A stretch of DNA of 64,000 nt from assembly GCA_040755755.1 (NCBI GenBank), contig JBFLZW010000031.1, positions 64,561 to 128,560 on the forward strand, read 5' to 3'. Positions 1,173 through 64,000 of the stretch are shown piece after piece. A program made the position numbers and the translations under genes. The stretch comes from a bacterium. Its GTDB lineage: Bacteria > SZUA-182 > DTGQ01. The notes beneath the pieces are model-generated. The model had not been told where the DNA came from and ran no database searches. It worked only from the letters and a program-made list of their open reading frames with translations. How positions within the stretch are numbered: the stretch's first letter is position 1; each line of letters opens with the position of its first letter.

Positions 1173-1535
1173 TTACCTGCCCTGCAATCTCCTGCACCTT
1201 CTCAGGCAGCCTGGCATAGCCATTGCCGGATTGGGTAGATTACCTGCAAGATAGGCCGAAATGACATCCTCGGCTTCGCCGGCGATGAACGGTATTATCC
1301 GGATGCCGTATGCTGCCAGTAAGTTGGACAGACATCGGGAAATGGCTCCGCAGAGCAGCGTTTCCACTTTCATGTCAGCCAATCTGCCTGCCCTTCGAAG
1401 CGGATCATTGTCATCCAGTACCTGCCTGTTTCTGGCGATAACGGTTCCATTCTCGATGTCCAAAATAAGGATCTGCCGGGATACATCGAAAACCGGCGAA
1501 ACCCTTCCATTCCAGATTGCCAGGGCTGTTCTCAT
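1173..1535 (-). CDS. NifX/NifB-like dinitrogenase FeMo-cofactor-binding family protein (DUF134-like)
   Basis: 120-aa ORF. The N-terminus MRTALAIWNGRVSPVFDVSRQILILDIENGTVI fits the NifX/NafY small-protein pattern (MKIA.P..G..vs.HFG.a..F.i.d.e.g). GGAGAG RBS 8 nt upstream. A sigma-54 promoter lies just upstream. Confidence 0.55.
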   Translation of the reverse strand: MRTALAIWNGRVSPVFDVSRQILILDIENGTVIARNRQVLDDNDPLRRAGRLADMKVETLLCGAISRCLSNLLAAYGIRIIPFIAGEAEDVISAYLAGNLPNPAMAMPGCLRRCRRLQGR

Positions 1536-1569: not shown

Positions 1570-1585
1570 AGCATCTGATGTGCCA
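1570..1585 (-). promoter_or_regulatory. sigma-54 (-24/-12) promoter for the NifX-like gene
   Basis: Minus-strand sequence TGGCACATCAGATGCT matches TGGCAC-N5-TTGCW, with GG and GC at the canonical spacing. It sits ~35 nt upstream of the ATG at 1535 and directly downstream of a sigma-54 activator gene. Confidence 0.45.
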
Positions 1586-5755: not shown

Positions 5756-5978
5756 AGGATGAACTATAGAGTATCACCGGAAAAAAGTCAAGAGGAGGAG
5801 TCGGGATCAGCAAAAAGTTCAATATTCACCCGTTCGTAGTATAAATATGTTGGCCATTATGTCAGCCACCGGATTCATTCTCTGTCATTCCCGCCTCCGC
5901 TGGAATGACGGGATTGGAGGCTTGTGAGAGGTATTGGGTGGGGCAAGAGCCTGGAAGTACCTAAGATATTTGGTAGAC

Positions 5979-6082
5979 ACAAGCCCCACCCTCCATTCTA
6001 CATTTAAGGTCAAGAAGAGCAATAGCTCAACACCTCTGGGTTTGTATCCCACCGAACACCTTGAATGGAGGGTGGGGCTTGT
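5979..6082. repeat. intergenic element with perfect 20-bp inverted termini (ACAAGCCCCACCCTCCATTC ... GAATGGAGGGTGGGGCTTGT) and a 64-nt spacer
   Basis: Found by reading the sequence directly. An additional hairpin (GTCATTCC-N10-GGAATGAC) lies at 5884-5909. Confidence 0.5.
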
Positions 6083-6383: not shown

Positions 6384-8375
6384 ATGCCTGATGAAGGAAG
6401 AAAAAGAGTCAGTATCGAGGGGGTCAAGCCGGAAATCGACGGCGGACGTTTTCCAATTAAAAGAGTTGCCGGAGAAAAGGTCATCGTGCAGGCGGATATC
6501 TTCGCCGATGGGCATGACTCGATTTCAGCCAATCTTTTATACCGCAAAGGAGCTGAAACCGACTGGCAGGAGACTCCCCTGCAATTCCTGGTCAATGACC
6601 GGTGGCAGGGAGAATTTGTGGTTGACGGTCCGGCTGTCTATTTCTACACGATCGAAGGCTGGATCGATCACTTCAAAACCTGGCAGAAAGACCTGAGAAA
6701 GAAATTCGAGGCCGGACAGGACTTACGGGTAGATATCCTCATCGGTATCGAACACCTTGAATCGGCCGCGAAGAGGGCTCCGGCGAGCGAAGCCGCAAGG
6801 CTCCTCGAATTTGCCGGTATTTTCAGAAACGCGACGGATGTTCAGACAGTGGTCTTGGCCGCTCTTGGCCGTGAGCTTGGCGAATTGATGGCCCAAAATC
6901 CCGACAAAAAATTGTCTACCCGCTACGGGCGGGAGCTCGAGGTTGTGGTCGATCGAAAGCGCGCTCTGTTCAGCTCCTGGTATGAGCGGTTTCCCCGCAG
7001 TTGTTCCCCGCAGCCTGATCGTCCGGGAACCTTGCGGGATTGTGAGCAGCTCATTCCGGAAATAGCCAAAATGGGCTTTGATGTTTTCTACCTTCCTCCC
7101 ATTCATCCGATATCCGAAACCAGCCGCAAAGGCAGAAACAATTCGCCGAACGCCAGTCCAGGTGATGTCGGCAGCCCCTGGGCTATCGGATCAAAGGAAG
7201 GGGGGCATCGGGCGATTCACCCTCAGCTTGGGACGATGGAGGATTTTGAACGGCTGCTCAGGAGGGCTGAAAGCTTTGGAATAGAGATCGCCATGGATCT
7301 GGCCTTCCAGTGCGGCTGCGACCATCCTTACGTTCAGGAGCACCCTGAGTGGTTCAGATGGCGGCCTGACGGCACGGTTCAGTATGCCGAGAATCCTCCC
7401 AAAAAGTATGAGGATATCCTCCCGCTCAATTTTGAAACAGCCTCCTGGCAGATGCTCTGGGAGGAGCTGAAGGGGGTGGTGCTGTTCTGGATCGGGAAGG
7501 GAGTGCGGATCTTCCGGGTCGATAATCCCCATACCAAACCCTTTCCCTTTTGGGAGTGGCTGATCAGGGAAATTAAAAGGGATTACCCCGATGTTATTTT
7601 CCTGGCCGAGGCTTTCACCCGGCCAAAGCTCATGCAGCGCCTGGCCAAGCTTGGATTTACGCAAAGCTACACCTATTTCACCTGGAGAAACAGCCGGCAT
7701 GAGTTGACCGCCTATCTCGAGGAACTGACTAAGACCGACATGGCCGAGTATTTCAGGCCGAACTTCTGGCCCAACACACCGGACATTCTCCCTGAGCACC
7801 TCCAGTATGGGGGAAGGCCGGCCTTTATCATCAGGCTTGTTCTGGCGGCAACCCTTTCTTCCAGCTATGGCGTCTACGGGCCTGCCTTTGAGCTGTGCGT
7901 GAGCGAGGGCCTGCCAGGCAGGGAAGAGTATGCGAACTCGGAAAAATACGAGATTAGATACTGGGGGGATTTGAGCCGGCAGGCGGGAAACCTGCGGGAT
8001 TATCTGCGCAAGATCAACAGTATCAGGAGGGATAACCCGGCTCTGCAGACTACCCGGAACCTGCAATTTTACGAAACGGAGAACGAGTATCTCATTGCCT
8101 ATGGGAAGGCCACCGATGACCTTTCCAATATCGTCCTGGTGGTGGTCAACCTCGACCCCTTCCATATCCAGTCCGGATGGGTAAAACTTCCCCTCTCCCA
8201 ATTCGGCATAGGCCCGGACCAGCCATACCTGGTTCACGATCTGATCAGCGAGATCAAATATATCTGGTATGGCGAGAGAAATTATATAGAGCTTAATCCC
8301 AATCTTCTTCCTGCACATATTTTGAGAATCAGGAAGAGGCTGAAAAGAGAAACCGACTTCGATTATTTCGTGTGA
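6384..8375 (+). CDS. glgE: alpha-1,4-glucan:maltose-1-phosphate maltosyltransferase
   Basis: 663 aa. N-terminus RFPIKRVAGEKVIVQADIFADGHD and GH13 core (FRVDNPHTKPFPFWEWLI) are typical of GlgE. Followed by treS and glgB. Confidence 0.9.
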   Translation: MPDEGRKRVSIEGVKPEIDGGRFPIKRVAGEKVIVQADIFADGHDSISANLLYRKGAETDWQETPLQFLVNDRWQGEFVVDGPAVYFYTIEGWIDHFKTWQKDLRKKFEAGQDLRVDILIGIEHLESAAKRAPASEAARLLEFAGIFRNATDVQTVVLAALGRELGELMAQNPDKKLSTRYGRELEVVVDRKRALFSSWYERFPRSCSPQPDRPGTLRDCEQLIPEIAKMGFDVFYLPPIHPISETSRKGRNNSPNASPGDVGSPWAIGSKEGGHRAIHPQLGTMEDFERLLRRAESFGIEIAMDLAFQCGCDHPYVQEHPEWFRWRPDGTVQYAENPPKKYEDILPLNFETASWQMLWEELKGVVLFWIGKGVRIFRVDNPHTKPFPFWEWLIREIKRDYPDVIFLAEAFTRPKLMQRLAKLGFTQSYTYFTWRNSRHELTAYLEELTKTDMAEYFRPNFWPNTPDILPEHLQYGGRPAFIIRLVLAATLSSSYGVYGPAFELCVSEGLPGREEYANSEKYEIRYWGDLSRQAGNLRDYLRKINSIRRDNPALQTTRNLQFYETENEYLIAYGKATDDLSNIVLVVVNLDPFHIQSGWVKLPLSQFGIGPDQPYLVHDLISEIKYIWYGERNYIELNPNLLPAHILRIRKRLKRETDFDYFV

Positions 8376-26895: not shown

Positions 26896-27963
26896 TCAGG
26901 CATCCGAGCGGCTTTCGCGCTCCGGCGGCATCAAAATATGATGCTTTTTCATGAAATATCCCAGGTTCCTTCGGTCAATTCCCAGCAGCTTGGCTGTTCT
27001 GCTTTTAACCCAATTGGCCCGGTCAAGGGCATTGAGGATTATGATTCTCTCGTACATCAATAACTGGTTTCGTAAATTAAGATCCTTGGCCAGCAGCTTC
27101 CTGTCCATCGGGATGCTTTCAGTCGGAGAGACCGCAGGCTGGTGATTCTCCCTGATATGGGCAGGAAGAATATCCGGATATATTTTATCCCTGCTTTCGA
27201 TAATCATGGCATTCTCGATAACATTTTTCAATTCCCGGATATTGCCCGGCCAGTCATACTTTACGAGCAGTTCCATAGCCTCGCTGGAAACTCCCTTCAC
27301 TTTAGTCTCCATTTCATTGCTGTTATGCTGAATGAAATGCTCCAGCAGGGAAGGGATATCCTCACGCCGATCTCTCAGGGGAGGAAGAAAAATAGTAATG
27401 ACGCTCAGCCGGTAATAGAGGTCTTCGCGGAAGGTTCCCTTTTGAGCGGCATCCTTGAGAATGACATTGGTCGTGGCGATAACCCGGACATCCACCTTAA
27501 TGGTTTTACTGCTTCCCACCGGCACGATCTCGTCTTCCTGGAGCACACGCAACAGCTTGGCCTGTCCGGCCAGCGGCATATTTCCAATTTCATCGAGCAG
27601 TATGGTCCCTTTATTGGCCAGCTCAAACCGGCCCTTTCGATCCGACAGGGCACCGGTATAGGATCCCTTCACATGACCGAACAGTTCACTTTCCAGCAAT
27701 GTCTCGCTTAAAGCCGCGCAGTTCACCTTGATAAAGGGCCGCCCATTCCGTAAACTGTGCTTATAAATCGCATTAGCCACCACTTCCTTGCCTGTTCCGC
27801 TCTCGCCCTGAACCAGTACTGTTGACTTTGTCTTGGCAATGATTCCAATCAGGCGGCAAATCTCTTTGATCTTCTCGCTCTTACCGATGATATCTGCTTG
27901 AACGTAATCCTGACCCATAATCAATACATCCCCCCGATCAATGTGAACAGGTTCCAGTTTCAT
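26896..27963 (-). CDS. sigma-54-dependent transcriptional activator lacking an N-terminal sensory domain (PspF-like architecture)
   Basis: 355 aa. AAA+ motifs GESGTGKE, GSYTGA, ESELFGH. C-terminal HTH (TAKLLGIDRRNLGYFMKKH). No receiver or PAS region. Confidence 0.85.
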   Translation of the reverse strand: MKLEPVHIDRGDVLIMGQDYVQADIIGKSEKIKEICRLIGIIAKTKSTVLVQGESGTGKEVVANAIYKHSLRNGRPFIKVNCAALSETLLESELFGHVKGSYTGALSDRKGRFELANKGTILLDEIGNMPLAGQAKLLRVLQEDEIVPVGSSKTIKVDVRVIATTNVILKDAAQKGTFREDLYYRLSVITIFLPPLRDRREDIPSLLEHFIQHNSNEMETKVKGVSSEAMELLVKYDWPGNIRELKNVIENAMIIESRDKIYPDILPAHIRENHQPAVSPTESIPMDRKLLAKDLNLRNQLLMYERIIILNALDRANWVKSRTAKLLGIDRRNLGYFMKKHHILMPPERESRSDA

Positions 27964-28304
27964 AAGGGATCTTTCTCGCGCACCTCCATAAGGTGAGCAA
28001 ATCCTATGCCAGCTTAAATTTTATCCCCCCCGCTCATTTTTATGCCCATAGGTGACTATAATTCTTCAGACAATCTATCCGACCTCATGAGGCTGCACGG
28101 CGCTCCAGACAACGGGAGAGAGCCGCCTGGCATGAAATAGATTTCATATATGAAAATATTTTCATACTAGTTCAGAAATAGTATATTTCCATTCATAGTG
28201 GCATTTTTACGAACTCACGGCTATCTTATCTGTTGATTTTCTGATCTCGATACGATAAACTAGAGTATTCTGATAGTATACTTTTTTCCCTTAACGCGAG
28301 GAGC

Positions 28305-28862
28305 ATGAAGTCGAGTATGGAAGAAATAATTCAACTTGATCCGATCATCCAGCCATCGCCAGACCAATGGTATGGCGTGCATACCCGATCTCGTCATGAG
28401 CAGGCGGTTTACGAGCGACTGACAAGTAAATCCATCCATACCTTTCTCCCCAAAATGGAGGTCTGGAGTGCGCGAAAGGACAGGCAAAAGCGGATTAGAG
28501 TGCCGATGTTTCGGGGGTACCTCTTTATCCGGGCCAACCTGGAAAACCGGCTCTGGCTTACTGTCCTGCAAACTCCGGGAGTCGCCCGGATCATCAGTAG
28601 CAACGGCAAGCCGGTACCTATCCCGGAAAACCAGATTTCCTCGATCCAGACCATTCTGGAAAACGATACGGTCGTCACTCCCTATCCTTATTTGAATATT
28701 GGCGAAAAGGTACGAATTGTGGCCGGCCCCCTTAAGGGGGTGGAAGGAATTCTTCAGCGATTTAAGTCGAATAAACAAAGACTTATTCTCTCGGTAGACC
28801 TTCTTCAGCAGTCAATCTGTGTTGAATTGAATACCATTGAAGTAGAGCCGATTAATTTCTAA
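28305..28862 (+). CDS. specialised NusG paralog (UpxY/LoaP-like transcription antiterminator)
   Basis: NGN domain (WYGVHTRSRHEQAVYERL...VPMFRGYLFIR) plus KOW motif (GEKVRIVAGPLKGVEGIL). ~180 aa, shorter and more divergent than housekeeping NusG. Confidence 0.7.
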   Translation: MKSSMEEIIQLDPIIQPSPDQWYGVHTRSRHEQAVYERLTSKSIHTFLPKMEVWSARKDRQKRIRVPMFRGYLFIRANLENRLWLTVLQTPGVARIISSNGKPVPIPENQISSIQTILENDTVVTPYPYLNIGEKVRIVAGPLKGVEGILQRFKSNKQRLILSVDLLQQSICVELNTIEVEPINF

Positions 28863-29911
28863 CTGCCGAGGGGAAGACTGCTTACCGCGTTCAGAGGAAA
28901 AATTTCTTTTCCCTCGATAAAATTCCCCGCCATTTTCCGAAAAAAACCCGCACTGGCAATCATGGCTGCATTATCGGTACACAGGAGCGGCGGGGGGTAA
29001 AAGAGCCGCAAGTTCAATTTTTGCGCACTGTGCTCCGCCCTGGTCCGGAGGCAGGAATTACAGGCCACGCCGCCGACCAGAACCAGTTGCTCTATCCCCT
29101 TGATCCGGCAGGCCCTGACGGCTTTGGTAACCAGGATATCCACCACCGCCTCCTGGAAGGAGGCGGCAATATTCCGCACCTCAGGAGAAACCTCGTCGTG
29201 CGGGGAGCCCGCTTCAGGAAGCACCAGGGAACCCTGCCGGGAGCGGACATGGTTTAAAACCGCCGTCTTTAATCCGCTGAAACTGAAATCGAAGCTGTCT
29301 TTTTCCAGGTATGCGCGAGGGAATTTAACCGCCGCCGGATTGGCGGTTTTGGCGAGCCGGTCAATTATCGGCCCTCCCGGATAGCCCAGTTGCAGGATCT
29401 TGGCAACCTTGTCAAAAGCCTCGCCTGCCGCATCGTCCCTGGTTCCGCCCAGGAATTCGTAATCCGTATGACTGTGAACGGCAAAAAGGCTGGTATGCCC
29501 GCCGGAAACCAAAAGAGCGATAAAGGGGAATTCCAGGGTGGGATAAGCCAGGAAGATCGCCTTGATGTGCCCTTCGATATGATTGACGGGAATAAGGGGC
29601 TTATGCTTCAGGTAAGCAAGCGCTTTGGCGACCGATACTCCCACCAGCAGTGAGCCGATCAGTCCTGGGCCAACGGTCACGGCAATGGCCTCGAGGTCAT
29701 CGAAATCCATCCGTGCTTCCTGAAACACCTGATCCAGGATCGGAATGATGGCTTCCATAGCCTTGCGGGCTGCAATTTCCGGCACTACCCCCCCGAATCT
29801 GTGATGGACTGCAATCTGGGAGGCTATCTCCTGGGCCACAATGTGCACTCCATCCCGGACAATGGCCACTGATGTTTCATCGCAGGAGGATTCTATGCCT
29901 AAGATGTTCAT
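28859..29911 (-). CDS. tsaD: tRNA N6-adenosine threonylcarbamoyltransferase
   Basis: MNILGIESSCDETSVAIV and HIEGH metal-binding motifs of the Kae1/TsaD family. Confidence 0.9.
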   Translation of the reverse strand: MNILGIESSCDETSVAIVRDGVHIVAQEIASQIAVHHRFGGVVPEIAARKAMEAIIPILDQVFQEARMDFDDLEAIAVTVGPGLIGSLLVGVSVAKALAYLKHKPLIPVNHIEGHIKAIFLAYPTLEFPFIALLVSGGHTSLFAVHSHTDYEFLGGTRDDAAGEAFDKVAKILQLGYPGGPIIDRLAKTANPAAVKFPRAYLEKDSFDFSFSGLKTAVLNHVRSRQGSLVLPEAGSPHDEVSPEVRNIAASFQEAVVDILVTKAVRACRIKGIEQLVLVGGVACNSCLRTRAEHSAQKLNLRLFYPPPLLCTDNAAMIASAGFFRKMAGNFIEGKEIFPLNAVSSLPLGS

Positions 29912-55317: not shown

Positions 55318-57054
55318 TTAGAAAAATTCCGGGAATTTAGAGCTCATTTCTCTCAAGACAAATTCCTCGATTTCTTTGGCCGTCGAGAAAGACATGGCCT
55401 TGTAGGCAAGCTCCGTAGCCTGCTCCAGCCGGACGGAACGGACAATCTGCTTGATGATCGGGATCGAAGCCGTGTTCATGCTGAACTCATCCAGCTCCAA
55501 CCCTAACAGAATCAAAGTCGATAGCGGATCCCCTGCCATTTCTCCGCACATCCCTACCGGGATGCCCTCGGAGTGCCCTGCCTCCACCGTGCGCTTGATC
55601 AATCGAAGAACAGCCGGGTGCAGCGGCTCATACAGGTAGGCCACATGCTCGTTTCCCCGGTCGATGGCGATGGAATACTGGATCAGATCGTTGGTGCCGA
55701 TGCTGAAAAAATCTGCCTCCTTGGCCAGCAGGTCAGCGGTAATTGAAGCCGAGGGGATTTCGATCATTACGCCGACCGGGATGTCCTCGTCAAAATAAAT
55801 TCCCTCCGACGACAACTCGTCCTTGACTTCGGCCAGAATGAGATTGGCCTGCTGGAGTTCCTCGATACCGGAGATCATGGGGTACATGATGCGCAGTTTT
55901 CCATAGGCACTGGCCCGCAGAATTGCCCGCAACTGGAGGCGGAACAGGTCGGAGTGCTTCAGGGAGAACCGGATGGCGCGAAGGCCCAACACAGGGTTCG
56001 GCTCATCCATGACGTGCAGCTTGGATTCGATCTTGTCACCTCCAAGATCCAGGGTGCGGATAGTTGCCTGTCGGGGACTCACCTGCTCAGCCAGCCGCTT
56101 GTAGACACGGAAATGGTCTTCCTCCGTGGGTAATTTGGGGCTGTTCATATAGAAAAACTCGGTCCGGTACAATCCGATCCCTTCCGCTCCCCGGCTCAGT
56201 ACATGGGGAATATCATCCAGGAATTCGATATTGGCCATGATTTCTATTTTATATCCATCCAGGGTTTCGGCCGGCTGGTCAGTATATTTCAAAAGCTCCT
56301 GAATGACATATTTGAATCTGCGCTGCTTTTCCAGATAATCGCGAAACTCTTCCGGGGTCGGTTTGACGATAACCACCCCATCGGTCCCATCGATGATGAT
56401 CGGATCTCCGGTCTTGACAAAGGTGCAGATGTTCTCCAGACCTACCACTGCCGGGATTTCCAGCGAACGGGCCATAATGGCCGTATGTGAAGTCCGGGCC
56501 CCAAGGTCCGTGGCGAAGCCGATTACCCTCCCCCGGTGCATCTGAGCGGTATCGGCTGGTGACAAATCGTGGGCAACAACGATAACATCCTCCTCAAACC
56601 CGTCGAGGCTCCTCATTTTTTCCCCTACCAGGTTATGCAGGATCCTTTGCCCTACGTGTTCGATGTCACTTTTGCGCTCCTTCATGTACGGATCTTCGAT
56701 CTGGTCAAAAATATTGGCGAACCGGGTCAATACCTTTCGTAATGCCCACTCGGCATTGACCCGTTCTTCCCTGACGATATTTATGGCTTCATTAACCAGC
56801 ATCTCATCTTCGAGAATAAGAATGTGGACATCCACGATATGAGCATGCCCCTGGTCACCAAGGTCGTGGGTGAGTTTCTCCTTTACCTGCAAGAGCTGCT
56901 CGCGGGATTTTTGCAGGGCATCCATGAATCGGGCGACTTCTTCCTCGACCATGTCACCAGCGATGGTAAATTTTTCAACCTTGATTTTTCTTCTATCCAG
57001 TAAAAAAGCTTTACCGATGCTGATGCCTGGTGATACCCCTACTCCTTTCAGCAT
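55318..57054 (-). CDS. ptsI: phosphoenolpyruvate-protein phosphotransferase (PTS enzyme I)
   Basis: 578 aa. Phospho-His region GGRTSHTAIMARSLEIPAVVG and the PEP-utilising C-terminal domain. Confidence 0.95.
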   Translation of the reverse strand: MLKGVGVSPGISIGKAFLLDRRKIKVEKFTIAGDMVEEEVARFMDALQKSREQLLQVKEKLTHDLGDQGHAHIVDVHILILEDEMLVNEAINIVREERVNAEWALRKVLTRFANIFDQIEDPYMKERKSDIEHVGQRILHNLVGEKMRSLDGFEEDVIVVAHDLSPADTAQMHRGRVIGFATDLGARTSHTAIMARSLEIPAVVGLENICTFVKTGDPIIIDGTDGVVIVKPTPEEFRDYLEKQRRFKYVIQELLKYTDQPAETLDGYKIEIMANIEFLDDIPHVLSRGAEGIGLYRTEFFYMNSPKLPTEEDHFRVYKRLAEQVSPRQATIRTLDLGGDKIESKLHVMDEPNPVLGLRAIRFSLKHSDLFRLQLRAILRASAYGKLRIMYPMISGIEELQQANLILAEVKDELSSEGIYFDEDIPVGVMIEIPSASITADLLAKEADFFSIGTNDLIQYSIAIDRGNEHVAYLYEPLHPAVLRLIKRTVEAGHSEGIPVGMCGEMAGDPLSTLILLGLELDEFSMNTASIPIIKQIVRSVRLEQATELAYKAMSFSTAKEIEEFVLREMSSKFPEFF

Positions 57055-57106
57055 TAAAAATCAGCCTCCCTGCTTTGACCTCAATCTTGAGGTAAGAATC
57101 CAGAAT

Positions 57107-57173
57107 CCAGGAGTCAGAAGTCAGAAGTCAGAATAAATACTCTTTTCTCCTGGCTCCTGACTCCTGACTCCTG
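57107..57173. repeat. GTCAG-repeat hairpin element between ptsH and ptsI (CCAGGAGTCAGAAGTCAGAAGTCAG...CTGGCTCCTGACTCCTGACTCCTG)
   Basis: 24-bp imperfect inverted repeat with a ~18-nt loop. Same GTCAG/CTGAC unit as 47489-47535. Confidence 0.5.
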
Positions 57174-57179
57174 TCTTTT

Positions 57180-57449
57180 TTAATTTTTTTCCCCGAATTT
57201 ATCTTCAATCAGTTCTATCAGCTTTGTCAGAAGCTCCTGCGCATCGGAACCATTCACATCGACCAACAGCTCACTGCCCAGTGGAGCATCCAGGGTCAAT
57301 ATTCCGAGGAGGCTTTTCCCATTGGCCGTAACGTCCCCTTTCTGAATGGTTATTTCTGAAGTATACTTATTGGCCAGATTGACAATCTGACTGGCAGCTC
57401 GTGCATGTAAGCCCAACTTATTTTTAATAAATACTGTCTGCTTTGGCAT
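57180..57449 (-). CDS. ptsH: phosphocarrier protein HPr
   Basis: His15 region GLHARAAS and Ser46 region GKSLLGILTL. 89 aa. Confidence 0.9.
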   Translation of the reverse strand: MPKQTVFIKNKLGLHARAASQIVNLANKYTSEITIQKGDVTANGKSLLGILTLDAPLGSELLVDVNGSDAQELLTKLIELIEDKFGEKN

Positions 57450-57512
57450 ATCTTCCCCCGGCAGATTGACGAGCGGATGAGAACCACAAAGAGAGAATGT
57501 TATACTTTATAC

Positions 57513-58298
57513 CTATATGATATTCAATAATCCTAACAAGATACAAGTGCTGCTGGTAATAAGCAATACTTTAATCAAGGTAATCTTTCGACGAAAAAGC
57601 TCTGAAATTACGAGAACTCCGAACAGTAATCCCAGCTTGTCCAGTGCACTGCGCCATGGCCACACTGGTTTACAATCCCATTTTATCACAACTGGGATCA
57701 TCGCTCCAAGAACAATCATCAGAAAAGATTTCAGATAAGCGCTGTATCGGAATAAATCGTACTTTCGAATCCTTTCCACAATTCTCCTCTCAAGAACATA
57801 ACCCTGCCAAAAGCCGAAAAATTTTACGTAGAAGTGAGGGATATTGTAGATGAGAAGGAAGGCAAGGGGAGCATATTCCCAGCCGGCCAGGGCCAGAGCG
57901 GCAGCCAGGACGCCAAGGAACGGCCGCCAGGAAGCCCAGAAAAAAGAATCCCCCAAAGCGCCCATCGGCCCCATCATTGCCTTTTTAAACGTCAGGATGT
58001 CTTCTGTCCGGATACCTTCGCCCTGAGCATGTTTTTCCTCCATTTTAATAATAGCCCCCAGAACAAAAGAGGCCATATAGGGGTGGGAATTGTAGAACTC
58101 AAGATGCCGCAGCAGGGCTGCCTCCCGTTCTTTCCGGTCCGGGTAAATTCTCCGGAGGGCAGGAAGAGCGGAAAAGGTAAAACCGAGATTTTGCATTTTC
58201 CTGAAATTCCAGCTCCCCTGGAAGATAAACGAACGAAAAACAACCCGGAGTAAATCGACCTTCCGCAGGCAGACAGCGCTTTGTGTACGTGATTTCAC
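57513..58298 (-). CDS. PTS mannose/fructose/sorbose-family EIID component
   Basis: FQGSWNFRKMQNLGF...HLEFYNSHPYMASFVLG motifs of EIID(Man). Confidence 0.85.
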   Translation of the reverse strand: MKSRTQSAVCLRKVDLLRVVFRSFIFQGSWNFRKMQNLGFTFSALPALRRIYPDRKEREAALLRHLEFYNSHPYMASFVLGAIIKMEEKHAQGEGIRTEDILTFKKAMMGPMGALGDSFFWASWRPFLGVLAAALALAGWEYAPLAFLLIYNIPHFYVKFFGFWQGYVLERRIVERIRKYDLFRYSAYLKSFLMIVLGAMIPVVIKWDCKPVWPWRSALDKLGLLFGVLVISELFRRKITLIKVLLITSSTCILLGLLNII

Positions 58299-58299
58299 A

Positions 58300-59085
58300 T
58301 TACCCCCTGCTCCACTTTCCCTTTATGGATTCCTTCAATCCATACAGCACACTCAGAAGGAGGGACGGGACCCCAAAGGCCATCCAGCACGGAAGAGGCC
58401 AGAGAGAGGAAAGCAGTGTGGCCAACAGAAAGCTCAAGGCAAACAGCCAGTACATATCTTTACTGCGAAAGGCATCGAAGAGCAGGGCGATGCCAATCAT
58501 CGGATAGGCAAAATACAAAAGCTTTAATCCACGATATAATCCCGGGGGAAATAAGGGGGCAATCCGCTGGAGAAGCGGGACGGTAATGAGCAGACTTATC
58601 AGGCACAGGCTGAATGAGCGAAGATAGAACAACCCGATCCCGCTGAAGTGGAGAAGATCGATTTTCCTTGATGTTTTTCCCGTGACCGCTGCCTGGACCT
58701 GATCGCAGATCCTGCCATTGGCCTTTCTGACCAGGATGCTCACCCGCTGGGCAAGGATCGAGAAGGGGATCGCCAATAAAATGGCCAGGCTGATCAGGGA
58801 CTCGCGGGAGCCTGGAAAAAATGGCCCGGCCAAAAGGCAGATTCCGGCAGCAATAACTGCTGCCATCGATCCGTCCAGGGGGACTGAACATCCGATCGGC
58901 AAAAGGTAAACCATCATAAGCTCAAGGAATGCCCCTATCACCAGTCCGGCATGCAAATCTCCAAACATCCATCCAAGCAGAGGAGCAGCCACAACCGGCT
59001 GCGAAATCATTATTTGAGTCAGCGAAACATCATCTAAATTTATCAGCCCGCCGATGAGACTGATTTCAAGGATTTGCTGAATCAC
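58300..59085 (-). CDS. PTS mannose-family EIIC component
   Basis: Polytopic membrane protein with the EIIC(Man) N-terminal pattern (MISQPVVAAPLLGWMFGD). 1-nt spacing to the EIID gene. Confidence 0.8.
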   Translation of the reverse strand: MIQQILEISLIGGLINLDDVSLTQIMISQPVVAAPLLGWMFGDLHAGLVIGAFLELMMVYLLPIGCSVPLDGSMAAVIAAGICLLAGPFFPGSRESLISLAILLAIPFSILAQRVSILVRKANGRICDQVQAAVTGKTSRKIDLLHFSGIGLFYLRSFSLCLISLLITVPLLQRIAPLFPPGLYRGLKLLYFAYPMIGIALLFDAFRSKDMYWLFALSFLLATLLSSLWPLPCWMAFGVPSLLLSVLYGLKESIKGKWSRG

Positions 59086-59120
59086 CCTAACCTCTTAATC
59101 CTGAGCCTTGCATTGATTTA

Positions 59121-59176
59121 AGTGGTCAGTGGCCAGTAATTAGTGACCAGTGGTCAGTAAAAAACTGATAACTGAT
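59121..59176. repeat. eight tandem heptamers of the AGTGGTC family (AGTGGTC AGTGGCC AGTAATT AGTGACC AGTGGTC AGTAAAA AACTGAT AACTGAT)
   Basis: Read directly. Lies between the GH57 stop and the EIIC start. Same unit as 47449-47483. Confidence 0.55.
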
Positions 59177-59189
59177 ACTTCTCTCTTGC

Positions 59190-61367
59190 CTAGTTATGGC
59201 TGTAATTGGAAACCTGCATCCGGAAGCGGCAGGTCCATCCCTCCCCTGCGGCTAAGTTGATATCCCAGTAGGGAAGGATAACCGAGCTCTGATAAACTCT
59301 TTCAAACCCTGATTCAGAATTTGAGGCGGTTTCGATCGGGAATCTCCAGATGCCGGGGTAGTCAGCAAAATCGAAAGAGACAATCAGACCAAGGGCTTCA
59401 TCCACCAGTTGAATCTGCTCGACCTGCTCCAGGGTTCCCCAACTGGCCAGTTGCCGATCCTTGAGGGCAATGCCGGGTACTTGATAATACCTGTCCGCAC
59501 TTCGTCCGGCCAGAAGGTTCACATTGAATTCTACTCCGAATCGGCATCGAACGGTCGATTTCCCTAAATTGACCAGTTGATACTCGAAAGCTAATTCCGA
59601 TTTATCTGCCTGAACCCTCACCGCTTTTTCAACGCGGAATGGGATATGCTCTCCATCGATCAGCAGGGAACCATCCCGGGAAAGAATAAGGTGGAGCATG
59701 TCCTGAGTCGATTGAAGTTGCTGTTTCTGGTAATTTCCGGTAATAAAATCCCCATATTCCTGATGTTGTAACCGGCTGAACTCCTTGAGTGTGGTGACAG
59801 GAGGGAAGAAATGATCGAGCAGGCAGTTGCGGGCATATTGATCATAATAAAGCAGCTCAGCCAGATCCTTTTCCTTGCTGACCGTAATCTCATGGATGCT
59901 CTTTACCCCATAGCTGTCATCCTGATCCACTCCTATGTGTGCTCCCTGCTGCAGTTTCTGGTGATACGTTTCCCGTCTGCGCATGAGAGAGTTGATCAGG
60001 TTAAAGGCTTTTGGCCGGTAGTCCAGTTCGTTGATCGTGCCCCCTGCGTCCATGTCAAGCCAGAACATCAGACTGGATGTTTTGACCAGGATTTCCTCTC
60101 TTCCGTCGCCATCCATGTCCACTGGCAGGCAATCGATCCAGCTCTCCGTCGGATGAAGCCGCTCATCGATGATGTTCTCTGCCTTGATCAGGTGATTATA
60201 GACTCCATCCCGCAAATGCGGGAGGTAGAGCCCGCCAAAAAGGCCGTGCCAGTAAGCATCATTGCATTGGCCTTTCCAGAGCTCATCCCGTGCCCGATCC
60301 AGCCATTGCTGAGAAGAATCCGCGGATGCCCCTTTACTCTGATACTGTTCGATCTGCTTACTCACCCAGAGCATTTTCTGATAGAGGTTGTTGCTCTCCG
60401 AATACTTGCTCAAAAAGTTGCGCCAGAAACCTCCCTTGACAAAGGGTTTGGCTCTCTGAGGGAACTCTTTGGTATTACTGATCATTCTTTCCAGAGCAAT
60501 AAATTCCTCCGCCGTCTGGATCGGCAGTGCCCACTCCTCCATCTCCGAATACGAGGCGGTCGGCAAATAAACTTTTCCCAGCGGAGGAAACTTGTCCACA
60601 TATTCGCCGTAAGTTATTGTTTCAAGAACATCCTGATTTTCTTCAACCAGGCTGAAGAACTGATCCAGCCAGCCCTGATTATAAACCAGATCATAGGTAC
60701 CCGGCCAGACACCGAATTTTTCTCCGTCATCGGCCATAACCCGCAGATTCCCCCTCCCCCGGTTTTCATGCAGCAGATAATCGATCGTCATCCGGGGGGA
60801 TTTAAATGGAATCGTATATCGCAGATACTTGCTGCCGGGGAAGACTTTCAGCAGGTTTCCCTGCTCCTCGGTAAGGTAATAACCCCACAGTTCCTCTTCA
60901 CGAATGCCGGCGGATCGAAAATGCAGGTCATCTACCGCCAGATACTCAATTTCAGCCTCTCGAATGTAGCGCACCAGATGCGGCTCCCACACCCGCTCGG
61001 CCAGCCACATGCCCCTCGGTGTGGTATGAAAGCGTTCTTTGAGAAACCGGTTCAATTTTTTAATCTGGCCAACCTTATCCACATCCGGGAGAATCGGTAA
61101 AATCGGTTCATAATAGCCGCCGCTCAATAATTCTACCTGTCCCCGCTCGATCATGTCAGCCACGATATCCAAAAGAGGAGAGGATTTTTCCAAAAACCAG
61201 TTCCAGAGTGTTCCTGAATAGTGGAGACTTATCTTGATTCCGGGATGTCTTTTCAACACCTCCCAAAAGGGAAAATATGCTTTCTGGTAACATCCTTCGA
61301 AAACAAAATCAAAGTTTCCTATCGGCTGGTGATTATGAATTCCCAAAATAAGGTATTGTTTTTCCAA
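59190..61367 (-). CDS. glycoside hydrolase family 57 protein (alpha-amylase/4-alpha-glucanotransferase-like)
   Basis: 725 aa. N-terminus LILGIHNHQPIGNFDFVFE...YEPILPIL and the WLAERVWEP/EY region are characteristic of GH57 catalytic domains. Confidence 0.85.
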   Translation of the reverse strand: MEKQYLILGIHNHQPIGNFDFVFEGCYQKAYFPFWEVLKRHPGIKISLHYSGTLWNWFLEKSSPLLDIVADMIERGQVELLSGGYYEPILPILPDVDKVGQIKKLNRFLKERFHTTPRGMWLAERVWEPHLVRYIREAEIEYLAVDDLHFRSAGIREEELWGYYLTEEQGNLLKVFPGSKYLRYTIPFKSPRMTIDYLLHENRGRGNLRVMADDGEKFGVWPGTYDLVYNQGWLDQFFSLVEENQDVLETITYGEYVDKFPPLGKVYLPTASYSEMEEWALPIQTAEEFIALERMISNTKEFPQRAKPFVKGGFWRNFLSKYSESNNLYQKMLWVSKQIEQYQSKGASADSSQQWLDRARDELWKGQCNDAYWHGLFGGLYLPHLRDGVYNHLIKAENIIDERLHPTESWIDCLPVDMDGDGREEILVKTSSLMFWLDMDAGGTINELDYRPKAFNLINSLMRRRETYHQKLQQGAHIGVDQDDSYGVKSIHEITVSKEKDLAELLYYDQYARNCLLDHFFPPVTTLKEFSRLQHQEYGDFITGNYQKQQLQSTQDMLHLILSRDGSLLIDGEHIPFRVEKAVRVQADKSELAFEYQLVNLGKSTVRCRFGVEFNVNLLAGRSADRYYQVPGIALKDRQLASWGTLEQVEQIQLVDEALGLIVSFDFADYPGIWRFPIETASNSESGFERVYQSSVILPYWDINLAAGEGWTCRFRMQVSNYSHN

Positions 61368-61426
61368 AATCTATCTCCATCAAAAGTATGAGATACCGTC
61401 AATCTGGCTTTGGCCAGGCTTTGATT

Positions 61427-61921
61427 TTACTTGCGCCCGATTAACTTCTGGTACAGGGGAATGTCCTGCAAATCGATCTGCTTATCCTGAGGGAGAGCAC
61501 GCAAATCCAAATGAACCCCGCTTTTCTGAATGTCCACCAGGTAGGAAGCCTCCTCTGCCTTAATTGCTATGTTGCTCTGAATCTCTATCTCTCCGGAATG
61601 AACACACCCCAGGTTCACTTCCCGGATTGGAAAACCCAGATCCAGGGACCTTTTGAAGTCCTTCAATTTGGAAAACAGGACGATAACATTTTTGTCCGGC
61701 AAATCGTGGCTGAGACATTTTTCTACGGTCAGGGCAATACTGTAAGCTTCTACCTTGATATTTTCCGGTACGGCAAGTTTCATGACTTCCAACCGAAGCT
61801 CATCTTTTTCAACTTCATCATCAGCAACAATAATCATGCTTGCCTTCAGGAATTTCGCCCATCCGACAATCACTTGGCCGTGAATTAATCTTTCATCGAT
61901 CCGTACTAAAACTATCGGCAT
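61427..61921 (-). CDS. PTS mannose-family EIIB component
   Basis: MPIVLVRIDERLIHGQVIVGW contains the EIIB(Man) phospho-His. Confidence 0.85.
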   Translation of the reverse strand: MPIVLVRIDERLIHGQVIVGWAKFLKASMIIVADDEVEKDELRLEVMKLAVPENIKVEAYSIALTVEKCLSHDLPDKNVIVLFSKLKDFKRSLDLGFPIREVNLGCVHSGEIEIQSNIAIKAEEASYLVDIQKSGVHLDLRALPQDKQIDLQDIPLYQKLIGRK

Positions 61922-62003
61922 AAATGTATCTACACTTTGTTAAAAAATGAACTAACCGGGGAAAGGGGGTTCTGGACTCAAAGCTTACTGCCAGTACCTG
62001 CCC

Positions 62004-62427
62004 CTATAATTTAACTTTTTTCTCTTCGAGTTTCTTGTTTAAGAGGTCACTGGCGATAATAATCTTTTCCCGACCGTAGATAAAGACGGTCTCTTTGATT
62101 TCCTCCAGGCAGTGCCCTTCACGATACGTAGCCAGCTTTAACAGCATGGGAAGGTTCACGCCCGTAACAACCTCGATACGCTTCGTGGACAAAAAGGATA
62201 AGCTCAGGTTTGAGGGACTTCCTCCGAACATATCCGTTAAAATCAAAACTCCCGAACCGGAATCCACCGCTTCGATGGCTTTCTGTATATCGTGCATCGC
62301 CTGCTCTACCCCGTTTCTCGAATCTACTGAAACGGCCTTCATTTTCGGAAGCGAACCGACAATAAGCTCAGAGCTTTTCAGCAGCTCTTCCGCCAGGTTC
62401 CCGTGAGCGACGATAACTACTCCCACC
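62004..62427 (-). CDS. PTS mannose-family EIIA component
   Basis: MVGVVIVAHGNLAEELL...LILTDMFGGSP is the EIIA(Man) fold with His10. Confidence 0.85.
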
Positions 62428-62466
62428 ATGTTATTTTCCATTTTGTCCTCACTTAAGTAGTAAAGC

Positions 62467-63426
62467 TCAAATAAGTTTGGCCTTGGATTTTTTGCTCAGT
62501 ATATCGATCACCTTCTGATCAAAGTCACGGGCTGAGTAATAACCGCTTTCCTTTAAGAGCTGATTTCGGGCTGCAACCTCAATAATAATGGCCATGTTTC
62601 TCCCCGGAGCTACCGGCATTTTAATTAACGGCACCTCAACTCCCAGGATATTCACCGTACTTTCCTTCAGCCCCAGTCGATCATACTCATACTCTTTTTT
62701 CCACTCTTCCATCACTACCGCAAGCTCTATCTTTTTTCGGTAACGGACAGCAGCCACTCCAAAGAGGTCTTTAATGTTGATGATTCCAAGGCCCCGCAGC
62801 TCCATATGATAGCGGATCATCTCCGGGCCGCTGCCAATCAGCACGTCAGGGGGCAGCAGTTTGATGTTGACCATGTCATCCGAAATCAACCGATGTCCTC
62901 GAACAATAAGGTCCAGCGCGCATTCACTCTTACCGATGCTGCTCTTGCCAAGCAGGAGAACTCCCCGTCCGTAGATGTCCATCAGAACACCATGAATGCT
63001 CGTTTCCAGGGCTAACTTCTCTTCCATGTAAGTTGAAATCTGACGGATAAAAATCGAACTTTGGAGACTGGATTGCAATATGGGGATTTTATACTTGTTT
63101 CCTACCGAAATCAGCTCCGGCGGCGGCAGCATGCTCTTGGTGAGAATAAAGCAGGAAATAGGTATTTGGCAAATAGCCTCTAAGACTTCCTGACGACGCT
63201 CACTGGAGAGGGTGTCCATAAAGGACACTTCGGTACTTCCTAAGACCTGGACCCGTTCTGCCCGTATCTGGGCAAAATACCCTGCCAGCGCCAGCCCCGG
63301 TTTTTGAATGCGAGGGGAGGTAATCTTGCGGTCGAGCCCTTCGTCCCCATTCAGGACTTTCAATTGCAGCCGTTCCGCCTGCTCGTTTACGAGCTCCCGG
63401 ATGGTTAAGCATTTCTGGACGAGCAT
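62467..63426 (-). CDS. hprK: HPr kinase/phosphorylase
   Basis: P-loop GKSSIGKSECALDL and the HprK signature region LEMRGLGIINI. 319 aa. Confidence 0.95.
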   Translation of the reverse strand: MLVQKCLTIRELVNEQAERLQLKVLNGDEGLDRKITSPRIQKPGLALAGYFAQIRAERVQVLGSTEVSFMDTLSSERRQEVLEAICQIPISCFILTKSMLPPPELISVGNKYKIPILQSSLQSSIFIRQISTYMEEKLALETSIHGVLMDIYGRGVLLLGKSSIGKSECALDLIVRGHRLISDDMVNIKLLPPDVLIGSGPEMIRYHMELRGLGIINIKDLFGVAAVRYRKKIELAVVMEEWKKEYEYDRLGLKESTVNILGVEVPLIKMPVAPGRNMAIIIEVAARNQLLKESGYYSARDFDQKVIDILSKKSKAKLI

Positions 63427-63436
63427 TCTTGCGTGT

Positions 63437-63904
63437 TTATCCTATAACGTCTTTTTCTTCATCGGCAATGGCCTGGTAAATGTCTCTGCCACTTTTAGCC
63501 TGCATTAATGCCTCTCGGAAGGTTGTTTTTTTCAGGAGCCGGGAAATTCTGGCCAGTATCTTCAGATGCAAAGGCGCCGAATTCTCCGGTGCCAGAAACA
63601 GAAAGAAGAGGTGAGCGGGCTTATTATCCAGAGATTCGAAATTGATTCCCTTTCGTGACCGTCCGAAAGCGGCCACCAGCGTTTTTATGTCACTGAATTT
63701 GGCATGGGGAATGGCCACGCCGTCCCCTATCCCGGTACTGCCCAGCTTTTCTCTCTCCAGTAAAACCTCCAGAGCCTTATCAGCATTCCGTACCTGGTTG
63801 TTATTAACCAGAAGTTGAACTAATTCCCTGAGCACCCCCATCTTGGTTTCAGCTTTGAGATCTGCTTCAATAACCTCCTCCGGCAAATAATCCAAGACCC
63901 TCAT
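63437..63904 (-). CDS. ptsN: PTS IIA-like nitrogen regulatory protein PtsN (EIIA-Ntr)
   Basis: Fructose/mannitol-type EIIA fold with the GDGVAIPHAK active His. Sits upstream of hprK, as in rpoN-hpf-ptsN-hprK loci. Confidence 0.9.
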   Translation of the reverse strand: MRVLDYLPEEVIEADLKAETKMGVLRELVQLLVNNNQVRNADKALEVLLEREKLGSTGIGDGVAIPHAKFSDIKTLVAAFGRSRKGINFESLDNKPAHLFFLFLAPENSAPLHLKILARISRLLKKTTFREALMQAKSGRDIYQAIADEEKDVIG

Positions 63905-63939
63905 AAAATTCCCTCCATTACGCGGACCATATCACTCTC

Positions 63940-64000
63940 TCACTGGAGCTCAGGCTCAATCAGTACCACTTTATCATCTTTAGACCGGTAAATTACACTG
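63940..64000 (-). CDS. hpf: 3' end of an upstream gene, possibly ribosome hibernation promoting factor (window edge)
   Basis: C-terminal ...SVIYRSKDDKVVLIEPELQ* resembles the long-HPF C-terminal domain ending (VIYRR.DG..GLIEPE). Only 20 codons are visible. Confidence 0.35.
   Translation of the reverse strand, partial: SVIYRSKDDKVVLIEPELQ

Follow-up and report, generated by a model that had tools for sequence, protein, structure and literature searches.

A stand-alone UpxY-family NusG paralog gene back to back with a putatively autoregulated sigma-54 activator gene in uncultured bacteria

Gene content and conservation of the locus

The 64-kb window of contig JBFLZW010000031.1 that was analyzed here (the whole stretch of DNA) contains a gene for a NusG paralog of the UpxY family, which stands back to back with a gene for a sensor-less sigma-54 enhancer-binding protein (bEBP). 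These are referred to below as the UpxY-like gene and the activator gene. All genomes compared were metagenome-assembled genomes (MAGs) of uncultured bacteria. The UpxY-like gene (28317 to 28862, plus strand) is convergent with tsaD (28859 to 29911, minus strand), and the stop codons at their 3' ends overlap by 4 nt. The activator gene (26896 to 27918, minus strand) diverges from it. Both neighbors had been recognized in an initial annotation of this DNA, as had the AT richness of the region between the divergent genes, where G+C content is 41% compared with 51% window-wide. The UpxY-like gene is monocistronic, with no open reading frame (ORF) after it, and no terminator-like site was found downstream of it.

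The gene order rSAM-selB-selA-activator, followed by the divergent UpxY-like gene and the convergent tsaD, was common to all eight orthologous loci, and orthologs of the UpxY-like protein (78 to 88% identity) occurred in at least six lineages. At one of these loci (L011), a gap of ~170 nt separates the UpxY-like gene from tsaD. A metagenome scan for orthologs with the activator as the query returned two orthologs; the other matches were generic activators of at most 53% identity. Pairwise ratios of nonsynonymous to synonymous divergence (dN/dS) of the UpxY-like gene were 0.03 to 0.09 among five lineages, and its dN was below those of tsaD, selA, and selB in every pairwise comparison. No other protein of the block was as well conserved as the activator and the UpxY-like protein. 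As dS was ~0.8 or more, and often saturated, in the lineage comparisons, intergenic blocks that are still identical can be regarded as being under constraint. Three such conserved islands were apparent in an alignment of the intergenic region from six lineages (the window, L003, L005, L010, L011, and L090): a sigma-54 promoter, a palindrome core, and a sigma-70-like promoter. Its sequence marks the intergenic region as a control region for two divergent genes rather than as a leader.

The UpxY-family NusG paralog

The ORF of the UpxY-like gene opens at ATG 28305 (28305 to 28862, 185 amino acids [aa]) and contains the Pfam NGN domain PF02357 (E = 1e-24). The KOW part is covered by the NCBIfam models for UpxY, LoaP, RfaH, and NusG, all of which align over residues 22 to 180. 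Placement among NusG, RfaH, UpxY, LoaP, and TaA was based on curated hidden Markov model cutoffs, used as a proxy for a tree. The protein scored 128.3 bits against the UpxY model NF033644 (cutoff, 100), with residues 22 to 176 matching model positions 1 to 160 of 164. It missed the cutoffs for LoaP (NF033641; 89.4 versus 125 bits), RfaH (TIGR01955, 89.2 versus 144.5 bits; NF006534, 66.1 versus 124 bits), and the housekeeping NusG equivalog (TIGR00922; 75 versus 135.7 bits). MAG homologs with 88 to 100% identity carry the GenBank label "UpxY family transcription antiterminator." The initial annotation as a specialized NusG paralog with NGN and KOW domains is therefore upheld and can be narrowed to the UpxY type, and the gene does stand alone, as proposed, outside any polysaccharide or secondary-metabolite operon. 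The secE-nusG-rplK context is not found at this gene, whose neighbors are the activator gene and tsaD. On these comparisons, it is a further stand-alone representative of the already known UpxY family.

Orthologs have GTG, GTC, or GTA in place of the upstream ATG 28305, and the start of the database homolog P0001 corresponds to 28317. For these reasons, ATG 28317 (181 aa) is taken as the conserved start. An exact database lookup of the 185-aa ORF gave no match because the databases carry the 181-aa start.

The AlphaFold (AF2) model of the protein (predicted local distance difference test [pLDDT] score, 90.7) comprises the NGN domain and a five-stranded beta-barrel KOW domain, with the C-terminal domain modeled as strands at residues 120 to 178 (pLDDT, ~90). 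The RfaH-like autoinhibitory alpha-hairpin was absent from this single model, which is weak on fold switching. Foldseek matched the model to NusG, to the LoaP-type NusG-RNA complex 8f5g, and to RfaH, and 8f5g was also the best PDB sequence match, at only 53 bits. A perfect 14-bp palindrome, CCCCCTTAAGGGGG, lies at 28727 to 28740 inside the KOW-coding part of the gene (GPLKGV); the window contains eight palindromes of at least 14 bp versus ~4 expected, and this one is probably due to chance.

Promoter and leader of the UpxY-like gene

A sigma-70-like promoter, TTGATT-N17-TAAACT, was located at 28233 to 28261 on the plus strand, with a predicted transcription start at ~28268. Its -35 element was invariant and its -10 element (GATAAAyT/GATAGAAT) conserved in all six ortholog lineages. 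As this conserved promoter ends at 28261, ~55 nt before the ATG, the leader would be only ~50 nt long, and the 340-nt leader of the initial annotation is not supported. A Shine-Dalgarno-like GAGGAG sequence is present at 28298 to 28303 (plus strand), 13 nt before ATG 28317. This (A/G)GGAG/GAGGAG purine run is kept in the window, L003, L005, and L090; L010 and L011 have only a degenerate version. Likewise, the leader sequence ATATACTTT is kept in four of the six lineages and is absent from L010 and L011. A second sigma-70-like match that overlaps the palindromes (TTTTCA-17-TATATT, 28159 to 28187) was rejected as a promoter, as it is not conserved and its -10 element is lost in L005, L011, and L090.

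Searches of the intergenic region for other regulatory signals were largely negative. No Rfam family was found at the gathering or the permissive threshold (three chance matches had E values of at least 1), and no plus-strand sigma-54 promoter was found upstream of the UpxY-like gene. The ops element GGCGGTAG is absent from the region, in agreement with the initial annotation, and no JUMPstart-like element was found there; in the 64 kb as a whole, ops had three minus-strand copies versus about two expected by chance. No leader motif was found to be common to this clade and to UpxY homologs with 58 to 62% identity.

The sigma-54 promoter and the sensor-less activator

On the minus strand, the sequence TGGCATAGGATTTGCT (28011 to 27996) is the only perfect match to TGGCAY-N5-TTGCW in the 64 kb and points into the activator gene. 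Its -24 GG lies at 28010 to 28009 and its -12 GC at 27998 to 27997, which would place the transcription start at ~27985. The corresponding block GAGCAAnnCCyATGCC was present in all eight orthologous loci, with GG and GC invariant and three positions varying. Furthermore, a sigma-54 promoter was found upstream of its own gene in every sensor-less activator homolog examined (L172 to L177).

The ORF of the activator reaches ATG 27963. This codon is not conserved, and homologs begin with MGQDYVQ, which indicates a start at ATG 27918; a GGGGGG motif ahead of this start is kept across the whole clade. The resulting 340-aa protein consists of ~9 residues followed by the AAA+ domain (Sigma54_activat, 2.5e-69), the lid (AAA_lid_14), and a C-terminal helix-turn-helix (HTH) domain (HTH_8, 4.4e-11). 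As only these ~9 residues precede the AAA+ domain, the activator is without a sensory domain. It scored below every NCBIfam equivalog cutoff, including that for PspF (TIGR02974; 275.7 versus 443.55 bits). Its sigma-54-contacting loop (residues ELFGHVKGSYTGA) reads GSYTGA, a natural variant of GAFTGA; both GSFTGA and GAFTGA are seen in sister clades. Among 45 sensor-less homologs, the loop was GSYTGA in 13, GSFTGA in 17, and GAFTGA in 14, while 61 of 75 longer homologs had GAFTGA.

Downstream of the activator gene, the selA-selB-rSAM genes have a sigma-70 promoter of their own with an extended -10 element (TTGAGA-N14-TGnTAyyTT; minus strand, 26864 to 26836), a block that is invariant in five lineages. 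Between the activator gene and selA, the search for terminator-like sites was negative. With selA served by a separate promoter, the activator gene is in effect monocistronic. A sigma-54-driven bEBP-selA-selB-rSAM operon in need of antitermination was considered and rejected, given the invariant selA promoter and the monocistronic activator genes of sister lineages. In L010 and L011, the selA ATG follows the extended -10 promoter by ~15 to 20 nt, which leaves a very short leader.

Elsewhere in the window, a second sigma-54-like promoter with one mismatch (TGGCACATCAGATGCT, 1570 to 1585, minus strand) lies 35 nt before an ORF (1173 to 1535, minus strand) for a 120-aa Nitro_FeMo-Co protein (NifX/NafY-like). 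As no TTTCAT-type dyad is present upstream of it, another activator presumably serves this promoter.

The palindromes as a candidate enhancer

A candidate enhancer (upstream activating sequence) at 28132 to 28166 contains four alternating half-sites: ATGAAA at 28132, TTTCAT at 28142, ATGAAA at 28150, and TTTCAT at 28160. The two overlapping perfect palindromes described in the initial annotation are part of this array. TTTCATATATGAAA forms a 14-bp palindrome (28142 to 28155), and ATGAAAATATTTTCAT (28150 to 28165) widens to a perfect 18-bp palindrome (28149 to 28166). When the 341-bp region was simulated 3,000 times with a first-order Markov model, 3.3% of the runs contained a palindrome of 14 bp or more and 0.6% contained one of 16 bp or more. 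The further TTCATA repeats that had been noted are also present, giving four positions (27959, 28143, 28161, and 28192). Additional copies of the palindrome, in contrast, did not materialize: TTTCATATATGAAA and ATGAAAATATTTTCAT are each single copy in the 64-kb window, where a search with up to three mismatches gave three matches versus 3.2 expected.

The core TTTC(A/C)TATA(T/A)GAAA and a distal TTkCAy half-site were kept in all six aligned lineages, in the layout ATGAAA-N4-TTTCAT-N2-ATGAAA-N4-TTkCAy. An extra TTCAT(A) half-site (28191 to 28198), ~31 bp from the TTTCAT half-site at 28160, was kept in five of the six, as TTCATAG, TTCACAA, or TTCATAT. The array also bears some likeness to ARG boxes (TGAAT-W4-ATTCA), but this reading was set aside, as the spacing is 18 bp instead of 21 bp and the vicinity is free of arginine genes.

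The dyad center lies 128 to 191 bp from the GG of the sigma-54 promoter, upstream of that promoter. With the anchor chosen after the data had been seen, the distances between dyad and sigma-54 promoter (141, 151, 184, and 204 bp) fell into one helical phase (R = 0.95, p ~0.009; n = 4, 10.5 bp per turn), whereas the distances between dyad and UpxY -35 element (86, 119, 82, and 109 bp) had no common phase (R = 0.41). When the sister loci described below were added, the phase relationship with the sigma-54 promoter was R = 0.66 (n = 7, p ~0.04). A single match to the IHF consensus was found, with one mismatch; it overlaps the -35 element, beyond the dyads as seen from the sigma-54 promoter, and its TTR part lacks conservation. 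Overall, the palindromes are most likely an enhancer of the activator's own sigma-54 promoter.

Sister genomes and the proposed insertion or relocation of the UpxY cassette

A search with the activator uncovered a clade of sensor-less activators of 332 to 345 aa with 60 to 68% identity. In three sister MAGs of this clade (L172, L173, and L176), the genes ftsEX-M23-ctpA-pda-tsaD are followed on the same strand, after 235 to 341 nt, by the activator gene, and the UpxY-like gene is missing between tsaD and the activator gene. Sigma-54 promoters were found there 80 to 95 nt before the activator ATG. A related dyad, rTGmAw-N7-TwCAT-AGT-ATGCAA, is located 142 to 200 bp upstream of these promoters, right after the tsaD stop codon. 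As activator, promoter, and dyad thus occur together without a UpxY-like gene, the palindromes and the sigma-54 promoter can be assigned to the activator. The HTH domains of the window lineage and of the tsaD-linked sisters have one and the same recognition helix, IDRRNLGYF, and this holds wherever a TTTCAT-type dyad was found.

The closest homolog of the UpxY-like protein (59 to 61% identity) is encoded between xseB and trpE in JBLIRP, JBLIRO, and JBLIRN; JBLIRP and JBLIRO are two of the three sister MAGs with the tsaD-activator order, and JBLIRN is a third relative. As TsaD is 52 to 56% identical at the same divergence, orthology of this xseB-trpE homolog is plausible. By this comparison of gene orders, the UpxY cassette (~28200 to 28862) is an insertion or relocation between tsaD and the activator enhancer in the window lineage, which would explain how the palindromes ended up "in front of" the UpxY-like gene.

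A paralogous activator clade has the recognition helix IDQRNLSYF, and one of its members is found in the same MAG as the orthologous locus L002. This second sensor-less paralog (L175; JAILZY010000062.1, 4206 to 5240; 68% identity) has its own sigma-54 promoter and is the only clearly palindromic example with the IDQRNLSYF helix. Its dyad is a different one, CTGGCTTGTTAGCCAG, ~170 bp upstream of its sigma-54 promoter. Downstream of this gene and of a further paralog (L174, 8001 to 8999) are unannotated ORFs or a PilZ gene, followed by a gene for a subtilisin-like S8 peptidase. In L174, the P0152 activator gene has a sigma-54 promoter that is bracketed by two ~33-nt repeats similar to AAATTTTCATTTTTTCTATGCGTATTTCAAGG (7650 to 7682 and 7876 to 7906), and a G+C-rich hairpin comes after each copy. 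The second paralog of the close relative probably constitutes a separate autoregulated circuit.

More distant UpxY homologs (49 to 53% identity) were found in nucleotide-sugar clusters, and others lie before giant surface-protein genes, which matches expectation for the family at large. At three loci (L006 to L008), three tandem copies of GTGCAGATTA are located ~75 to 105 nt upstream of the start of a UpxY-like gene (e.g., ~1050 to 1085 in L006) whose product, the homolog P0021, has 62% identity. Downstream of it are an HTH_17 gene and genes for giant cadherin-like or unannotated surface proteins, in one case beside an IS110 transposase gene. This version may be a mobile, cis-acting factor.

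Two proposed regulatory units and alternative explanations

The locus is probably best described as two independent regulatory units placed back to back, an autoregulated sigma-54 activator gene and a monocistronic UpxY-family gene. In the first unit, the C-terminal Fis-type HTH domain would let activator dimers bind the array at 28132 to 28166 and perhaps also the half-site at 28192. Assembly of the ATPase ring and looping would then bring the activator to the promoter at a distance of ~140 bp, where it would open the closed sigma-54 complex, with positive autoregulation as the outcome. In the second unit, the UpxY-like gene would be transcribed from the promoter at 28233 to 28261 with its ~50-nt leader. 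UpxY-type factors bind paused RNA polymerase at specific sites and promote processive elongation (PMC11685472, PMC7593976). By extension from the family, the NGN domain may bind the clamp of RNA polymerase paused at such sites, and the factor may render elongation processive and resistant to termination in one distant operon or a few of them. Binding of the activator to the dyad, the transcription starts, and the antitermination activity with its targets are the parts of this scheme that we infer. As the UpxY-like gene is monocistronic, has moved between loci, is strongly constrained, and has no downstream genes, RfaH-like action in trans is presumably the best reading for its product.

Several observations weigh against this description. 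The dyad of the sister loci is similar but not identical, with an alignment that is uncertain by ~1 nt. The dyad of L173 is out of phase with its sigma-54 promoter, and the phase statistics come from four to seven loci with an anchor picked after inspection of the data. The sigma-70-like promoter of the UpxY-like gene fits the consensus at only 8 of 12 positions, which is why a generic promoter scan overlooked it. GSYTGA replaces GAFTGA in the activator loop, so that the activator's action on sigma-54 is an assumption. Furthermore, rpoN is not within the window. The window ends in the C terminus of a long HPF-like protein (..VIYRSKDDKVVLIEPELQ; 63437 to 64000, minus strand), which is followed by genes for a PtsN-like EIIA, HprK, mannose-type PTS IIA/IIB/IIC/IID, a GH57 amylase-type enzyme, and PtsI (55318 to 63426, minus strand). 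As the hpf-ptsN-hprK gene set is usually downstream of rpoN, rpoN probably lies just outside the window. A search of the window for operons that the UpxY-like protein might target and for sites where it might be recruited was negative, and no polysaccharide or secondary-metabolite cluster other than glgE-treS/mak-glgB is present. Finally, the dyad lies exactly 86 bp from the UpxY -35 element in five of the eight loci, which leaves room for a second role of the dyad at the UpxY promoter.

That last spacing is the main attraction of a shared enhancer, in which the dyads would serve both genes, the bound activator would also modulate the UpxY sigma-70 promoter 86 bp away, and coexpression would join an activator of initiation and an elongation factor in one module. 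The preservation of the sequence between dyad and -35 element in close lineages despite saturated dS, and the status of the two encoded proteins as the most conserved of the block, are also consistent with such an arrangement. However, the spacing to the -35 element shifts by nonintegral turns in the distant loci (82, 109, and 119 bp), the dyad center is ~120 bp upstream of the predicted start, a long way off for a site from which a sigma-70 promoter would be activated or repressed, and the UpxY homolog of the sister genomes sits at another locus with neither a sigma-54 promoter nor such a dyad upstream. We therefore consider a shared enhancer unlikely. Less probable still is the reading of the initial annotation, that the palindromes are the operator of the NusG paralog, where a conventional dimeric repressor or activator would bind in a long leader or promoter region and control this gene only. 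Perfect palindromes of 14 and 18 bp, overlapped by the weak sigma-70-like match at 28159 to 28187, speak in its favor. That match is not conserved, however, and the conserved promoter leaves only the short leader; moreover, the dyad is phased with the activator's sigma-54 promoter rather than with the UpxY -35 element, and a related dyad precedes the activator gene in sisters that have no UpxY-like gene.

Action in cis would involve recruitment of the UpxY-like protein in its own short leader, as happens with UpxY in Bacteroides, and antisense read-through that dampens the convergent operon tsaD-pda-ctpA-envC-ftsXE. The 4-nt overlap of the 3' ends without a terminator-like site, the leader motif kept in four lineages, and the position of the opsX sites of Bacteroides, 9 to 111 nt before the upxY start codon (PMC11685472), could be accommodated by it. 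We nevertheless regard it as very improbable, given the ~170-nt gap before tsaD in L011, the absence of the leader motif from L010 and L011, the sister-lineage homolog that is not convergent with tsaD, and the absence of any identified pause or ops-like signature. The initial annotation had left a choice between action in trans and a locus remnant. The former survives, but a decaying remnant of a polysaccharide or secondary-metabolite locus, or for that matter the housekeeping NusG itself, is hardly credible: although the gene stands apart from all biosynthetic clusters, its low dN/dS and its dN below those of tsaD, selA, and selB, together with an intact ORF and a conserved promoter and Shine-Dalgarno sequence, speak against decay, and a score below the NusG cutoff in a context other than secE-nusG-rplK speaks against the housekeeping factor.

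In a more far-reaching reading, the relocation of the slowly evolving UpxY-type gene to a place beside the activator's enhancer would be functional, and the two genes would form a coupled initiation-plus-elongation module, in which the activator would switch on a sigma-54 regulon and the coregulated UpxY-type NusG would be recruited in trans to those long transcripts. We consider this quite doubtful; if true, it would be the first tie of enhancer-dependent initiation to a specialized NusG. The literature searched contained no link between UpxY-type factors and sigma-54. On present evidence, nothing at the locus goes beyond known mechanisms. Two points are nonetheless of wider relevance. AT-rich palindromes before a gene may belong to its divergent neighbor, here as what appears to be a textbook sigma-54 enhancer. 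Furthermore, the UpxY-type gene is a clear case of a family member in a housekeeping context: it is monocistronic, occupies different loci in related genomes, and is under tighter constraint than tsaD or selA. Such properties would be expected of a trans-acting factor of the RfaH kind outside the paradigms of Proteobacteria and Bacteroidota. If targets were found in MAGs, the range of ways in which UpxY-type factors are known to act would widen.

Comparison with known systems

Among sensor-less bEBPs, PspF and HrpR-HrpS resemble the activator in consisting of AAA+ and HTH domains only and in the location of dyads 130 to 200 bp upstream of a sigma-54 promoter in a divergent intergenic region. 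In Escherichia coli, pspF is transcribed with sigma-70, and the sites upstream of it serve to activate the divergent pspA. In contrast to these systems, the sigma-54 promoter in the window would drive the activator gene itself (positive feedback), no PspA-like or HrpV-like antagonist is encoded near the activator gene, and the loop is GSYTGA.

The UpxY antiterminators of Bacteroides capsular polysaccharides (NF033644) share with the window protein the NGN-KOW architecture, with a score above the family cutoff, and a basic beta2-beta3 hairpin, SARKDRQKRIRVP, like the Class-1 UpxY hairpin that touches upstream DNA (PMC11685472). Unlike the Bacteroides genes, the window gene is not first in a polysaccharide operon at any of the eight orthologous loci and is convergent with tsaD. 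It has no adjacent upxZ inhibitor gene and no identified ops-like site in its ~50-nt leader, a type of site that has no consensus in this clade, and it evolves more slowly than the neighboring housekeeping genes; UpxY and RfaH have been reported to evolve faster than NusG (PMC7593976). With the monocistronic, trans-acting RfaH of Proteobacteria, it has in common a stand-alone gene and a mode of action that is presumed to be in trans, on operons located at a distance (PMC7593976). It differs from RfaH in scoring below the RfaH cutoffs, in having no GGCGGTAG nearby, and in a C-terminal domain predicted as a beta-barrel, although the latter comes from a single AF2 model that is weak on this point.

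Otherwise, the window contains genes for housekeeping functions, chaperones, and PTS components and the alpha-glucan operon glgE-treS/mak-glgB. This operon is preceded by a 628-nt gap with a perfect 20-bp inverted repeat (ACAAGCCCCACCCTCCATTC/GAATGGAGGGTGGGGCTTGT; 5978 to 5997 and 6063 to 6082) whose arms are 65 nt apart. The repeat had no Rfam match and may represent either a structured leader or a small mobile element.

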